Shown piece after piece: positions 13,116 through 64,000 of a stretch of DNA of 64,000 bases. Numbering within the stretch: the stretch's first letter is position 1; the number at the start of each line of letters is the position of its first letter. The translations under genes were made by a program, and so were the position numbers. This DNA comes from a virus. Location of the stretch: IMG/VR virus record IMGVR_UViG_3300027509_000012. One strand, 5' to 3'. A model generated the notes under the pieces. It was given only the letters and a program-made list of their open reading frames with translations, did no database searches and was not told the DNA's origin.

Positions 13116-14042
13116 ATGTTTTCAATGAAATCAATAACATTGACATTTTTGATGGCCCTGACATTATCTGGATGTAATTGGGTTGATTCTACAGGCGTAC
13201 AGGCTGGAGCCGTAGACGATTCAACTATTGACCAAACATCAATACCCACGTTTCCAGTAGCTCCAATTGGTGAGCAACGAGAGCTTATTCCTCGTGCTCG
13301 TTTTAATAATTGGATTGATGCTATGGCTGGCCCTGATTTACGTACTGGAATTTATAAAGGAACAACACGAACATTTAATTCTCGTGTAAATGAAGTATTG
13401 GGAATAGAAGCAAGTTTGAAAGTGGAATGTGCAATAAACGAACAATCCCCGAAAATTAATATTATTACTTACTATGATACTCCAGATGATTTGTTGCTCA
13501 TGTATGCAACAGAAAGTATGATAGCTAATAGTGAAGCTGACTTCACTACTTTTAGTGTAGAAGAATCAGGGGGAATATATTCTAATACAATCAGAGAATC
13601 TGATACATTATATATGCTCCCGCAAATGCTCACTAATCGTATTTTTAGAATTTTATTGATGGAAGATGGTGTGTCAATTCAATATGTATTCGATCTAGAT
13701 GGATTTTATGATTCATTTAAATACGCATGTGAATGGCACAACGCAACAAATAATTATGTTAACTTAGATGAGTCAATGATCGAAGAACCAGTTATAGAAG
13801 AACCTGTAGTTGAAGAACCTGTAGTTGAAGAACCTGTAGTTGAAGAACCTGTAGTTGAAGAACCTGTAGTTGAAGAACAAGAACCAGAACCAGTTTTTGT
13901 AGATAAAAATTGTGGTGATTTTGAAACACAATCAGAAGCACAGGAATTCTTTATAGCCGCTAAAGAGGAAACTGGCGAACGCGATGCCCATTTCTTAGAC
14001 AGTAATGGTGATGAAACGGTTTGTGAATATTTACCTGAATAG
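13116..14042 (+). CDS. lipoprotein with EEPVV linker and C-terminal Excalibur-like Ca-binding domain
   Basis: Lipobox LSGC; C-terminal NCGDFETQSEAQ...LDSNGDETVCE. Confidence 0.7.
   Translation: MFSMKSITLTFLMALTLSGCNWVDSTGVQAGAVDDSTIDQTSIPTFPVAPIGEQRELIPRARFNNWIDAMAGPDLRTGIYKGTTRTFNSRVNEVLGIEASLKVECAINEQSPKINIITYYDTPDDLLLMYATESMIANSEADFTTFSVEESGGIYSNTIRESDTLYMLPQMLTNRIFRILLMEDGVSIQYVFDLDGFYDSFKYACEWHNATNNYVNLDESMIEEPVIEEPVVEEPVVEEPVVEEPVVEEPVVEEQEPEPVFVDKNCGDFETQSEAQEFFIAAKEETGERDAHFLDSNGDETVCEYLPE
13782..13880 (+). repeat. 15-bp tandem repeat GAAGAACCTGTAGTT (EEPVV)
   Basis: 5 perfect copies at 13797-13871 plus degenerate flanking copies. Confidence 0.95.
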
Positions 14043-14048
14043 AATAAT

Positions 14049-14588
14049 ATGAATACTAACGATTTATTAGAAACTAATTTAATTTGTACAGTGCTTGAGG
14101 GTAGTCATGCATATGGAACAGTCATACCATCTTCAGATCTTGATATGCGCGGAATTTTTTGTGGAAATCCAATTAATGTTAGAACACCATTTTTTCCTGT
14201 TAGGGAAATAGAGGTTGTTGAAGATGAAGATACTAAGTATTTTGAACTTAATCACTTTATGCGCTTATTGCTGGATCAAAATCCAAATATTGTACAGATG
14301 TTATGGGTACGCAATCAGGACATTATAAAATCAACTGAAGCATATGAGCTATTAAGATCACGTAGGGACAATTTTTTATCATCCAAAATAGCTTTCACAA
14401 CAGCAGGATATGCAGATTCTCAATTAAAAAGAATTAAATCATCAAAAAAACATGTAAACTACACCGATCAATTACATTCATTATCAACCGTTTTAACAAA
14501 AGCTTTGAAAGTGGGTGATATTGATCATACATGGATAAAAAACAATTGTGGTGATCAAGTATTGGACTATATAAAAAATGAAAAATGA
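14049..14588 (+). CDS. Pol-beta-family nucleotidyltransferase (putative RNA repair), N-terminal piece
   Basis: GSHAYG...SDLDMRG catalytic motif, NPNIVQMLW, GYADSQLKRIK; stops early with a ~40 aa unrelated tail. Confidence 0.82.
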   Translation: MNTNDLLETNLICTVLEGSHAYGTVIPSSDLDMRGIFCGNPINVRTPFFPVREIEVVEDEDTKYFELNHFMRLLLDQNPNIVQMLWVRNQDIIKSTEAYELLRSRRDNFLSSKIAFTTAGYADSQLKRIKSSKKHVNYTDQLHSLSTVLTKALKVGDIDHTWIKNNCGDQVLDYIKNEK

Positions 14589-15600
14589 TGAGTTGTTATT
14601 TAGAATCAACAATGAATTAATTCGAAAAGATGGAAAATTAAATGCACCCCTTTTAAACTTAAACTCTAAATGTGGGGATTTAATTTCATCTATTATAAAA
14701 CATACGCATTATTTAAATAGTGATGCGACTATAAGCCAAAGAATATGGCATATCACAAAAAATGTTCACACTACACCAAAATGTTGGTGTGGGAAAAATT
14801 CGTTGTGGATAAATCCAAAATATTCAAAATATTGTTCTCAGGTTTGTGCAACTACTTCATTAGAAGCAAGACAGAGAACTAAAAAACAATTTACAGGGGT
14901 TAAATTGTCAAAAGAACGCATAGATAAAATTATAAAAAGAAATACTGGTTCTAAACGTTCTATCGAATGTAGGAAAAAACTTAGTGATGGTAAATTAGGC
15001 AAAAAAAATCCACAATACGGTAAAAAATCATGGAACGCTGGGCTGTATGGAACTGATAATCCAATGTTTGGAGTTAAAAGACCCGGCACCGGATTGAAGG
15101 GTAAAGACAATCCATCATATGGAAAATCACCTCCCCTCGGCACAGGCTTTGGAATAAATGGAAAATTCAACGAAATACATTTTAGAAGTAGTTTAGAATT
15201 GTTGTATCTCATGTATTGGTATTCAACAAATATTATAGTAATTTCCGCAGAATCGTCAGATTTTAGAGTTAAATATTCCGATGATAAAAATGATATTAGA
15301 GCATATACGCCAGATTTCTATATACCATCGTTGAATACAGTTTATGAAATAAAACCTGAAAAATTACAAAAAAATAAAATAGTTCAGTTAAAATTTAATG
15401 CATTAATTGAACATCATAGTAATTTAATATGTAAATTAATTGGATATTCTGAAATAAGTGATTTTATTTTTTCAATTGATTTAAATTCCACTATTAATAA
15501 TTATATTGATAGTGGAGTTCTTAAAATTAACAAAAAACAATTTGAGAGGTTGCAAAAAAATTATGGAGATATCATTAGAGAATCTGCTAAACAAGTATGA
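14578..15600 (+). mobile_element. free-standing homing endonuclease (Cys-rich N-domain, NUMOD3-like repeats, PD-(D/E)xK/TnsA-like nuclease)
   Basis: PKCWCG...YCSQVCA; HxxxxK-like / GKKNPQYGK / NPMFG repeats; FRSSLE...YTPDFY...YEIKP; overlaps both halves of the nucleotidyltransferase. Confidence 0.8.
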
Positions 15601-16273
15601 TGCTCCAGATAATCATATTAATGATTGTTTGAAATTATGTATTCCGAGGCAAGAGTGTTATATTCATTTAATTCAGTGGTTCGCGGATAATAAAGTTATG
15701 CCGAATACATTTGATATAATGACATACAGCAATAATCATAGATTTATAAGTTATGGAAATGATTTGTATGGAATGTACGACTGGAATAAATTTAAATTAT
15801 TTAATCCAGATGGTTCGATTAAAGATAATTTTGATGGCTCAAGAGAATCACTGGGACAACCAAAGGCGATTGTTAAATTAAATAGATCTAAATGGACAGA
15901 TGATAAAAATTTCTATGACAAATATTGGTTATGGAAAAAAAATAGAAATGAAAAACGAGCTAAGTTAGAAGCTGAATTTTTTTATGATACAAAAAATGCT
16001 ATGCATCTCGTCAGACTTCTCAGAATGGGCTACGAAACACTTACTACAGGACAAGTAAACGTGTTCAGAGATGATGCTTCAGAGCTGTTAGAGATTCGCA
16101 ATGGCTCTCTCACATACGACGAAATATTAGCATATGCAGATACTATGGACATTAAAATAAAAGAAGCGTATGATAATACCGAACTGTCCCGCAAACCTAA
16201 TGTTAAATTAGCGGCACAGACTATAATGGAAGTACAAGATTTAATTTGGAATTCAAATGACAATAACAAATAA
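15563..16273 (+). CDS. nucleotidyltransferase, C-terminal piece
   Basis: YWLWKKNRNEKRAKLE..FFYDTKNAMHLVRLL.MG...L is the typical C-half of this family; GAGAGG RBS then ATG 15563 inside the endonuclease 3' end. Confidence 0.8.
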   Translation: MEISLENLLNKYDAPDNHINDCLKLCIPRQECYIHLIQWFADNKVMPNTFDIMTYSNNHRFISYGNDLYGMYDWNKFKLFNPDGSIKDNFDGSRESLGQPKAIVKLNRSKWTDDKNFYDKYWLWKKNRNEKRAKLEAEFFYDTKNAMHLVRLLRMGYETLTTGQVNVFRDDASELLEIRNGSLTYDEILAYADTMDIKIKEAYDNTELSRKPNVKLAAQTIMEVQDLIWNSNDNNK

Positions 16274-61650: not shown

Positions 61651-62186
61651 TGAGTATATTAAAAGAATTAACCACAATGTCTGAAGCCACTGATCTTACA
61701 CAATTTCCTTCTGATGTTTATCATGAACTTGAAGAACACATTCATAAAGGCGCTAAAGACTTAGAACGAACCTATGCAAATGCATTGGAATTGGTCAAAG
61801 AAGCATTTAAAGTAGAACATGTAGAACTTCCAGATCCATCAATGAAAAAAGCATGGGATCAATTTACCCAATTGATTCATTATGCAACTGAAAAGCTTTT
61901 AAAGTTTCGAGGTATTGATGGTGATTGGCGAATGAGTTCTCATGCATTTCGAGAATCAACTGAATTTAATGATTATGAAGTTACTGTTACTAATAAAGGT
62001 ATAAGCGAAAGCTACATTGTGCGTGATGAAGATATTCAATCTATTGTTGAAAGCACAACTGATGTAATGAGTAACTTGTATGATGTTTCTGTAGAGCAAG
62101 ATGGTGATTCAGATGCACTTATATCATTTAGTAAGTGGAGTATCAAACAGCCAAAATCAATTAAGATTCAAAAAATCACTCCCTAA
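61650..62186 (+). CDS. putative internal head protein (MSILKEL leader)
   Basis: Same first 7 aa as 59203. Confidence 0.6.
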   Translation: MSILKELTTMSEATDLTQFPSDVYHELEEHIHKGAKDLERTYANALELVKEAFKVEHVELPDPSMKKAWDQFTQLIHYATEKLLKFRGIDGDWRMSSHAFRESTEFNDYEVTVTNKGISESYIVRDEDIQSIVESTTDVMSNLYDVSVEQDGDSDALISFSKWSIKQPKSIKIQKITP

Positions 62187-62268
62187 AATTAATTTTTTGT
62201 GTGATGTAGTTCCACATTATAATTAATTTCTCCTGTATTATTGCCGAATATACATCGGGAGCACCCAC

Positions 62269-62622
62269 ATGAACGATTATCAACAAACACTATATTCTGA
62301 CTTGATGGCGCTGGTCGCTGGATCAAAGAAGAAAATGTTTTTCTTTAAAGATCACGAACGAGATGGAAACCATTATCGAGTTTTCAGCTATCACATGGGA
62401 TCATATTCTGATTGGTTACTTCCATCTGCATTAGAATGCCGTGGCATCATGTTTCAAATGAATGGTGAAGAACCTATTGCATTAGCATCATTACCATTTC
62501 CTAAATTTTTTAACGTTTACGAGGCGTCCGACGATATAAATACTCTAGCAGAAGCATTAGTTAGAGATGGGAGATTATCAGAAGATGTATTCAACAGATT
62601 TAAAAAGAGAAATAAAAAATAA
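62269..62622 (+). CDS. Rnl1-type RNA ligase, N-terminal piece
   Basis: YRVFSYH..SYSDW..P.ALECRGIMF...LPFPKFFN as in T4 RnlA N-terminus; stops before the KxDG motif. Confidence 0.85.
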   Translation: MNDYQQTLYSDLMALVAGSKKKMFFFKDHERDGNHYRVFSYHMGSYSDWLLPSALECRGIMFQMNGEEPIALASLPFPKFFNVYEASDDINTLAEALVRDGRLSEDVFNRFKKRNKK

Positions 62623-63439
62623 ACTATTTTTTAAAAGCGGAATAATAAACAAATATATCTATACAGAAAAATTTTGGATTAAAAATAATTTAGTAGAGTT
62701 GCGAACTAATATATATGAAAAAACATCATTTATTCCATATGATGCTAGATTGGATGAACGATTATTTGTCATAATTAATGATGTTGATATATTACCTTTA
62801 TGTCCAGTTTGTGAAAAAATGGTTAAATTTAAAAGATATGGTCTGGGATATTCAACTTATTGTTCAGTAAAATGTAGAGCAAACCATAGTGAATGGCAAA
62901 TGGTAGTTAGGGATACAAATAAAAAACGATATGGTGTCGAATTTATTGCTCAATTACCACATGAACGAATTAAGCGAGGTATTGAGTTTAGATATAATGT
63001 GAAACACACTTTTGATTATTCTAATGCCCAGAAAAAAAGAAGAAAAACTTTAGTTAGAATATATGGAGAAGATTATAATTCTGGTTGGACAGAAGAAGCA
63101 ATTAAAAAAAGAATTAATAATGGTAATATGGTTCCTTATGAACTTCGAGATGAATATTTAGAATATAAAAGACAAGTTGAATTGATTACTAGAAAACAGC
63201 CAATTAATACTTTAGAAAATCATGAATTGCGGGGAGTTATTGGCAAAGATGAAAATCCATATCATTTAGATCACGTAATTTCTATGTACGAAGGTTTTAT
63301 GGAAGATGTACCACCCGAAATAATAGGTAATATTATAAATTTACGATTTATCCCAGCAGGAAAAAATATAACAAAGGGAAATAAATCAAATGGATCATTA
63401 CAGGACTTAATAGAACGCTATGAAAAAAGAATTCGATGA
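62585..63439 (+). mobile_element. free-standing HNH homing endonuclease with Cys-rich N-domain
   Basis: LPLCPVC...YSTYCSVKC; YHLDHVIS..GF...PPEIIGNI.NL..IP...N..K; GGAG then ATG 62585 (62567 also possible). Confidence 0.8.
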
Positions 63440-64000
63440 CTTAGTTGAAGCAAATGGATTAGAATCATTGTATGATTATTTTCCACATCTTAAACCATTA
63501 AATTGGAGTAAGTTTAAATGGGCAGAAAATAAAGCAGACGGAAGTATGATAGCCACATACTCTGATAATGGTCCTATGCGATTAAAATCAAAAACAGCAT
63601 TAGAATCAATTATGGCTAAAGATGCAGAATCATATCTACAATTGCCAGAAAATGCTGATTTGGAAAGAGCAATGCGACATTATCATAATGCTGGATACAC
63701 AATTGTTGGTGAGTGGTGCGATTCAACTAAGCCAGAATCTAGAATTGTATTGGCTTATGATAAACCACAATTAATAATTTTTGGTGTGCGAAGAAATAGT
63801 GATGGTCAAATCATTGATTATCGTCATGACGAAGGTTTGGTTGGTGATTGTTCTGATGAATACAAAAAACAGATGCGCGAAATACTGGTCTTGAATTCGG
63901 TTGAGCGAACACTAATTACCGATCCAGAAGAATTTAATAAATTAGCATTGAGTGAAACTGGTATCGAAGGATACGTTTACGTATTCGAAGATGATGTTCG
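63420..64000 (+). CDS. Rnl1-type RNA ligase, C-terminal piece, 3'-truncated by window edge (not in ORF track)
   Basis: Own translation: MKKEFDDLVEANGL...NKADGSMIATY...RLKSKT...TIVGEW...RIVL.YDKPQL...R...ETGIEGYV (motif I KxDGS, motif IV EGYV); open to window end. Confidence 0.85.
   Translation, partial: MKKEFDDLVEANGLESLYDYFPHLKPLNWSKFKWAENKADGSMIATYSDNGPMRLKSKTALESIMAKDAESYLQLPENADLERAMRHYHNAGYTIVGEWCDSTKPESRIVLAYDKPQLIIFGVRRNSDGQIIDYRHDEGLVGDCSDEYKKQMREILVLNSVERTLITDPEEFNKLALSETGIEGYVYVFEDDV

Follow-up and report, generated by a model that had tools for sequence, protein, structure and literature searches.

Introns and inteins are the two well-known ways in which a selfish endonuclease can occupy a gene without killing it. 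A third way, in which the host protein is split and reassembled through additional tails, is so far represented by one biochemical case, the NrdA protein of phage Aeh1, and by one comparative study, on the MobA element. Here we analyse a 64,000-nt stretch of DNA from a T4-like phage (IMG/VR record IMGVR_UViG_3300027509_000012; 'the window' denotes this whole stretch), at the end of which rnlA, the gene for an RNA ligase of the Rnl1 type (T4 RnlA), is divided by a free-standing endonuclease gene into an upstream N-piece and a downstream C-piece. The N-piece ends with an additional peptide, the tail, and the C-piece begins with another one, the head; uninterrupted ligases with normal spacing at this site are referred to as short-linker ligases. 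We regard it as likely that a mobile homing-endonuclease cassette has split rnlA and supplies its own extensions to both fragments, and that the ligase is made as two chains. With rnlA, the split-protein strategy gains a third host gene and a second endonuclease lineage.

In Aeh1, a free-standing endonuclease of the HNH family splits the ribonucleotide reductase gene (nrdA-a/mobE/nrdA-b; Friedrich et al. 2007; Crona et al. 2011, PMC3045599), and the tails of the NrdA pieces, which are of opposite charge, proved biochemically indispensable for the heterodimers to dimerise (Crona et al. 2011, PMC3045599). The rnlA locus resembles this system in having two (predicted) translated pieces and unique C- and N-terminal tails that arise with the insertion, without RNA or protein splicing; also, the charges of the basic tail and acidic head of the window follow the pattern seen in Aeh1 NrdA. 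However, only one phage carries the nrdA split, whereas rnlA has many independent natural insertions, and the tails were tested biochemically in Aeh1, whereas the rnlA case is known from sequence. The host enzyme is here the monomeric Rnl1, and the endonuclease belongs to another family.

The MobA element of T4-like topoisomerase genes (gene 39/mobA/gene 60) has in some lineages lost its endonuclease and kept the extensions, including fused open reading frames (ORFs) (Manning and Atkins 2022, bioRxiv 10.1101/2022.08.31.505936). Here the likeness extends to an out-of-frame endonuclease (HNH-like in rnlA) with short overlaps that is flanked by element-encoded C- and N-terminal extensions, to repeated independent insertions at one site, and to the element-encoded replacement of a deleted host segment, in that the FPxxxP motif of rnlA resembles the 'homR' of MobA. 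The rnlA cassette differs by the host gene, by lacking a translational bypass cassette, and by shorter extensions (about 32 and 20 versus about 44 and 45 amino acids); since a tblastn search found few Escherichia phage records, its endonuclease is not an obvious MobA orthologue. The order N-fragment, endonuclease ORF, C-fragment is also found in the phage-derived metagenomic DNA of Dassa et al. (2009, PMC2677866), but the fragments described there contain split Hint domains by which the exteins are joined, whereas the rnlA extensions are far too short for this and lack any splicing residue.

The preliminary description of the window had presented the split rnlA as a new case. The same architecture is, however, already annotated as 'split RnlA' in Acinetobacter phage 133 (GenBank HM114315: rnlA-A, hypothetical protein, rnlA-B), in which tblastn matches the middle ORF of the window with 38% identity over 96% of its length (Acj133p227). 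In the literature searched we found no mention of a split rnlA, which is known from this database annotation. Phage 133 shares with the window the host gene, the insertion point, a homologous endonuclease, tail and head, and the same three-frame overlaps. It differs in having a divergent cassette subtype, the tail of which is acidic and without the DINT/TATAAATA element described below, and a ligase body from another lineage (sister of P0091). The rnlA case is a further, well-sampled example of a known arrangement, neither unique nor categorically new.

Anatomy of the split rnlA locus

The features of the locus are as follows:

62269-62622, + strand: rnlA N-piece (ORF list), 117 amino acids, PFPKFFNVYE end followed by the 32-amino-acid tail
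62269..62523, + strand: body of the N-piece, 85 codons, about T4 Rnl1 residues 1-81, ending with KFFNVYE
62524..62622, + strand: N-tail, 32 extra codons and stop codon, part of the mobile cassette
62535..62542, + strand: T4-type late-promoter motif TATAAATA, inside the tail codons D-I-N-T and 43 nt upstream of the endonuclease ATG
62569..62573, + strand: ribosome-binding site (RBS) GGGAG of the endonuclease, inside the tail codons G-R, read from the sequence
62585..63439, + strand: free-standing endonuclease gene, 284 amino acids from ATG 62585, with an in-frame upstream ATG at 62567
63420..63497, + strand: C-head, about 20 extra acidic codons, then FPHLKP
63498..64000, + strand: body of the rnlA C-piece, with motif I (KADGS), running off the window

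The N-piece, the endonuclease ORF and the C-piece occupy three different frames, each with its own start codon, and an RBS-like purine run can be read upstream of both the endonuclease and the C-piece starts. For the endonuclease we favour the start at 62585, as its homologs begin with MY... at the equivalent ATG; counted from there, it overlaps the N-piece by 38 nt and the C-piece by 20 nt. The preliminary description had given the same overlaps, and its account of the two ligase halves was accurate as well: the PFPKFFNVYE end of the N-piece is followed by about 32 extra amino acids, and the C-piece starts at ATG 63420, with about 20-24 amino acids preceding KPLNWSKFKWAENKADGS. The C-piece was missing from the ORF track because it runs off the window and is listed only with open ends allowed. 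It is complete (L024:5152-6141, 329 amino acids) on the metagenomic contig L024, which matches the window with 0 mismatches over 5.7 kb.

Judged by sequence, the locus is an Rnl1-type RNA ligase gene in two pieces, with a predicted ATP-dependent RNA-joining activity. Residues 6-87 of the N-piece correspond to T4 Rnl1 residues 3-84 (phmmer against T4 Rnl1 structures, E 1e-25) and residues 33-300 of the C-piece to residues 95-349 (phmmer against PDB 2c5u, E 2e-23); on the PHROG 562 profile the N-piece covers positions 4-93 (E 1e-26) and the C-piece follows from position 92. By such comparisons, no T4 Rnl1 residues are missing from the two pieces. The C-piece matches the Pfam family RNA_lig_T4_1 (PF09511; E 1.1e-10, 42.1 bits with a cut-off of 28.3) and, in its full length, both PF09511 and PF20819 (T4_Rnl1_C), while the N-piece alone reaches 15.7 bits in Pfam, which is under the cut-off. 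Motif I (KADGS) lies in the C-piece, in which the equivalent of the adenylated lysine is K38 (63531-63533), aligned with T4 K99. In the N-piece, R58, K79 and F81 align with T4 R54, K75 and F77, reportedly found essential by mutational work and located upstream of motif I. Nearly all of some 120 uninterrupted ligases have a spacing of 24 (range 22-26) between the lysines of KFFN and KxDG; the preliminary description had put the FFN-to-KxDG distance of T4 RnlA at only about 20 amino acids. The extra peptides on both halves are without counterpart in ordinary Rnl1.

Among the split loci, the tail has the consensus D-INTLAE-LV--GRLSEDVY---K with a basic C-terminal end (isoelectric point, pI, about 9.5). 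Tail homologs occur in 8 other loci but not in the short-linker sister ligases. The heads follow the pattern M..EFD-LVE--GLE-L (pI about 4.1) and are conserved in at least 14 C-pieces, each opening with an ATG at a conserved distance from its motif. Of four loci measured, three combine a basic tail (pI about 9.5) with an acidic head (pI about 4.1). The FPHLKP after the head is the cassette version of the host NPxTxxL segment, as mapped against short-linker sisters: in alignments with the sister ligases, host NPxTxxL is replaced by FPxxxP. The extensions are under selection at the protein level. As the tail codons vary synonymously (Leu CTA/TTG/CTT/TTA; Arg AGA/CGT; Ser TCA/TCG/TCT/AGC), we conclude that the tail is translated and selected; its nonsynonymous change per site (pN) is 0.25 compared to 0.35-0.42 in the ligase bodies. 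The idea that tail and head are degenerate copies of the native KFFN-to-KxDG linker was dropped after comparison with short-linker sisters and with the fused forms described below; hhalign gave no tail-head similarity.

The tail also contains the signals for the expression of the endonuclease. The motif TATAAATA is present in the window in 6 copies (3811, 23569, 34602, 41433, 53917 and 62535), all on the + strand, which is fewer than expected by chance (mean 11.6). Five of these copies are intergenic and located 26-45 nt upstream of ORF starts, which indicates that the phage uses T4-type late promoters; the sixth is the copy in the tail. The sequence ATAAATAC is nucleotide-invariant in all six loci examined other than phage 133, and GGGAG is conserved in L027, L029, L030 and L031. 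Both GGGAG and the endonuclease ATG sit within the tail codons GRLSEDV. In a further locus (L025:4001-5123), an rnlA N-piece with conserved tail is followed by unrelated ORFs that replace the endonuclease and the C-piece; the contig ends 780 nt past this region. Here the TATAAATA-like motif, the RBS and the endonuclease ATG have decayed while the tail amino acids have been kept, which argues for a role of the tail at the protein level as well.

Strong RNA hairpins were noted in two loci (L026:4255-4350, z -4.6; L030:2104-2199, z -4.9), in which the bases after ATAAATA pair with the endonuclease RBS and start, recalling the sequestration of the RBS in early transcripts of T4 endonuclease genes. 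As a general feature such a hairpin was rejected, for none was found in the window, L027, L029 and L031.

The label of an HNH endonuclease, given to the middle ORF in the preliminary description, holds in part. Weak fold matches, a beta-beta-alpha element in the predicted structure and the invariant motif H..DH...N...N are consistent with it, but no Pfam HNH domain was matched (DUF7487 appeared below threshold only), and a PDB sequence search with the endonuclease gave no match. The N-terminal half contains a CxxC...CxxxC zinc-finger-like element and is matched by PHROG 3339 'homing endonuclease' (E 4e-9), and the HNH-like nuclease domain would comprise the C-terminal 100 amino acids or so (about 63134-63430). 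Across 45 homologs, H227, D229, H230, N252, N261 and K264 are invariant or nearly so. In an AlphaFold2 (AF2) model of the endonuclease (predicted local distance difference test, pLDDT, 95), the conserved His/Asn residues of catalytic type fall on a strand-strand-helix (beta-beta-alpha) element (strands 226-230 and 253-257, helix 258-264). The best structural match is the GVE2 HNH nuclease 5h0o, with weak values (Z 4.5, 76 residues, root-mean-square deviation 5.4), followed by Cas9 HNH, Gme HNH and McrA (Z 2.5-3.5); all Foldseek E values are at least 0.05. These weak matches are enriched in HNH nucleases. Relatives of the endonuclease join the C-terminal domain to NUMOD3 or helix-turn-helix modules, as homing endonucleases do.

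Recurrence and mobility of the cassette

Beyond the window and phage 133, complete three-ORF loci were found on five metagenomic contigs (L026, L027, L029, L030 and L031). Protein searches yielded four further N-pieces with tail, and the best 150 ligase relatives include C-pieces with a head (about 303-329 amino acids) in at least 12 clusters at 50% identity. Most of the split examples came from protein collections, and the complete loci via contigs; scans of IMG/VR and of JGI metagenomes added only phage 133 itself and L029. Among the loci other than phage 133, amino acid identities amount to 47-81% for the tail, 38-70% for the head, 42-58% for the endonuclease and 39-49% for the C-body of the ligase; thus the parts of the cassette are better conserved than the host gene in which they sit.

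In the C-body tree, built by maximum likelihood, the split forms fall at separate places among uninterrupted ligases with normal spacing. Several pair with a short-linker sister (support by the Shimodaira-Hasegawa-like approximate likelihood-ratio test, SH-aLRT): phage 133 (A133) with P0091 (99), L029 with P0033 (99) and L030 with P0058 (100). One clade with a support of 100 unites the window, L027, the short-linker ligase P0011 and the fused form P0012. A single clade of cassette-bearers was rejected in an approximately unbiased (AU) test with 24 rows (delta log-likelihood 395, p-AU 1.5e-109). Given this scatter and the rejection of a single origin, tail, endonuclease and head have been gained and lost repeatedly as one cassette. 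Up to the junction, the flanks are closest to the short-linker sister (74/67% identity in L030 and 74/63% in L029, compared to 45/39% with other split forms). A long co-conversion tract was considered and not seen at this divergence; the junction flanks are not closer to those of other split forms.

The preliminary description had named the presence of the tags in intact ligases as evidence against its reading. Taken literally, such ligases exist, though they are rare: five single-chain clusters (P0012, P0029, P0034, P0040 and P0129; 409-442 amino acids) contain tail-like and head-like segments that are linked by a short connector, without an endonuclease. These fused forms nest among short-linker ligases on the C-body tree, and their extensions are only 19-41% identical to those of the split forms, compared to 38-81% among the split forms other than phage 133. 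No endonuclease remnant was found in the DNA encoding P0012 (L032). The AF2 model of P0012 (pLDDT 90.5) matches T4 Rnl1 (E 5e-27); its tail part forms helices at 77-86 and 92-99 and its head part helices at 116-121 and 123-129, separated by a low-confidence loop (100-115) at the endonuclease site, and the strand leading to motif I follows the head helices. Owing to their nesting among short-linker ligases and their more diverged tags, the fused forms are best read as cassettes that have lost the endonuclease in frame, and they do not count against the two-chain reading.

Some of the split loci lie on very long contigs (450,775 bp for L029; up to 302 kb for contigs with the window's protein), which suggests large T4-like genomes for these carriers of a split rnlA. 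Two other Rnl1 homologs, P0013 (761 amino acids) and P0068 (669 amino acids), have a large N-terminal region fused to the ligase, the match to which starts only at residue 400-470.

Explanations for the two ligase pieces

The cassette that we propose measures about 975 bp (roughly 62524-63497) and lies between the KFFNxxE motif and the NPxT segment, with the insertion point 17 residues before the motif I lysine. It gives the upstream ligase fragment a 32-codon C-terminal extension with stop codon, in which the late promoter, the RBS and the start codon of the HNH-like endonuclease gene are embedded, and provides the downstream fragment with a start codon, an acidic extension of about 20 codons and a short stretch that replaces the host segment. 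Most likely, the two halves are made as separate chains, of which the N-chain would carry the counterparts of T4 R54/K75/F77 and the C-chain motifs I-V and the C-terminal domain; both would associate to rebuild one nucleotidyltransferase domain. The endonuclease would cut uninterrupted rnlA alleles, and the cassette would be copied in by repair; it is the phylogenetic distribution that suggests such homing. The replaced host segment may shield the carrier allele from cleavage. By analogy with Aeh1 NrdA, the basic tail and the acidic head may help the chains to assemble, a role for which purifying selection, the pattern of charges and the model of the fused P0012 give indirect support.

An inserted endonuclease gene could also be bridged, so that one chain results: the region from KFFNVYE to FPHLKP would then be removed by a group I intron or a split or degenerate intein, or be skipped by ribosomal bypass. 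Group I introns with HNH endonucleases, inteins and the gene 60 bypass all occur in T4-like phages, and taking out the region would leave a spacing near the normal 24 residues. Still, we consider a single chain to be scarcely credible, and the claim of the preliminary description that a free-standing, non-splicing endonuclease gene splits the ligase gene is supported by the anatomy of the locus, at which neither an intron, an intein nor a bypass signal was found. Rfam gave no match in the window at gathering thresholds and none of relevance in 62000-64000 at E values up to 10, including Intron_gpI, and the roughly 120 nt outside the endonuclease ORF are too little for a group I core. No Hint or intein domain of Pfam was matched at the locus; the first tail residue is A, V, I or L rather than Cys or Ser, the head ends with FPxxxP and not with HN plus Cys/Ser/Thr, and the extensions, in total about 52 amino acids, are far too short for a Hint fold. 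A bypass hop of about 900 nt would be without precedent. Furthermore, the tail varies synonymously in the upstream frame, the flanks show selection at the protein level, each head starts with an ATG at a conserved distance from the motif, and the endonuclease is read in a frame that neither piece uses. The insertion could instead have inactivated rnlA, with the two ORFs as decaying remnants without function. The gene is dispensable for growth of T4 on most laboratory hosts, and L025 keeps only the N-piece, followed by unrelated ORFs. However, both ligase ORFs are intact in 7 of the 7 complete loci despite 40-50% protein divergence, and nonsynonymous per-site change is about half of the synonymous change, which is saturated (pN/pS 0.41 and 0.52 in the two ligase bodies). 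Together with the retention of motif I and of the counterparts of T4 R54/K75/F77, and with Pfam and PDB matches over the full length, this makes a dead gene very unlikely.

The fused ligases allow for a different history, in which tail and head represent the two parts of an older insertion, helical and about 55-65 amino acids long, that is native to a ligase subfamily, and the endonuclease landed in its surface loop; the extensions would then be host structure and not element-borne assembly tags. Five single-chain clusters with both segments joined by a short connector, the P0012 helices that flank a low-confidence loop exactly at the endonuclease site of the split forms, and the L032 DNA without endonuclease remnant would all fit such a native insert. 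We nevertheless hold it to be unlikely, since cassette-bearers, split and fused, are strongly polyphyletic among short-linker ligases, and the sequence up to the junction follows the short-linker sister. The higher divergence of the fused-form tags is as expected after loss of the endonuclease, a 'fused after loss' state also seen for the MobA element (Manning and Atkins 2022). Even with a native ultimate origin, the module now travels with the endonuclease.

Several points weigh against the mobile two-chain cassette that we prefer. The two-chain state, the association of the halves and the ligase activity are in silico predictions, and the endonuclease is consistent with an HNH-like enzyme by motif and weak fold matches (Z at most 4.5). 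The existence of fused ligases with tail and head means that the peptides are not restricted to split proteins. Synonymous change in the tail (pS) is also low, 0.50 compared to about 0.8, and the signals embedded in the tail (promoter, RBS and start codon), like the 38 nt that code in two frames, confound its conservation; part of this conservation and of the low synonymous divergence is due to these endonuclease expression signals. The tail of phage 133 is acidic (pI 4.8); thus charge complementarity is not universal. Finally, the short-linker rows of the AU test were picked after the first tree had been seen.

Significance of the cassette and a second split locus

For comparison, the set of natural states on offer is unusually rich: alleles that are empty, at least 12 diverged ones that are split, and fused ones that lack the endonuclease. 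We propose, tentatively and with some reserve, that tail and head form an element-borne heterodimerisation module, a protein 'antidote', that lets the cassette invade rnlA in many phage lineages while the enzyme is preserved, and that related cassettes with a shared N-terminal DNA-binding domain of the endonuclease have been retargeted to an RlaP-like gene. If this is true, the rnlA cassettes would offer the best comparisons for testing how mobile elements neutralise the fragmentation of genes, because natural insertions are numerous and both empty sister alleles and fused derivatives without endonuclease exist. The role of the tail is directly testable, since Rnl1 is small and monomeric, with solved structures and simple assays. 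For genome annotation, ligase ORFs of about 115 and 320 amino acids around an ORF of about 280 amino acids should be read as a split rnlA and not as fragments or pseudogenes.

The RlaP-like gene in question lies in the window itself. At 14049-16273, a nucleotidyltransferase of the RlaP family (PF10127, E 7e-13) is interrupted by a 340-amino-acid ORF with a NUMOD3 motif. Both split genes of the window have RNA-repair functions. The preliminary description had regarded the two loci as independent. For tails and heads, which have no detectable homology, this stands; the endonucleases, however, share an N-terminal domain, as the N-terminal 160 or so amino acids of the RlaP-splitting ORF are homologous to the N-terminal half of the rnlA endonuclease (BLASTP E 3e-6). 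A shared adaptor between the two loci was considered and rejected (hhalign of the rnlA tail and head with the pieces at 14-16 kb, less than 1% probability). In L030, the split rnlA is followed about 3 kb downstream by an intact RlaP gene. In the window, the ORF immediately upstream of the split RlaP gene (13116-14042) has a signal-peptide- or lipoprotein-like start and a series of VEEPV repeats.

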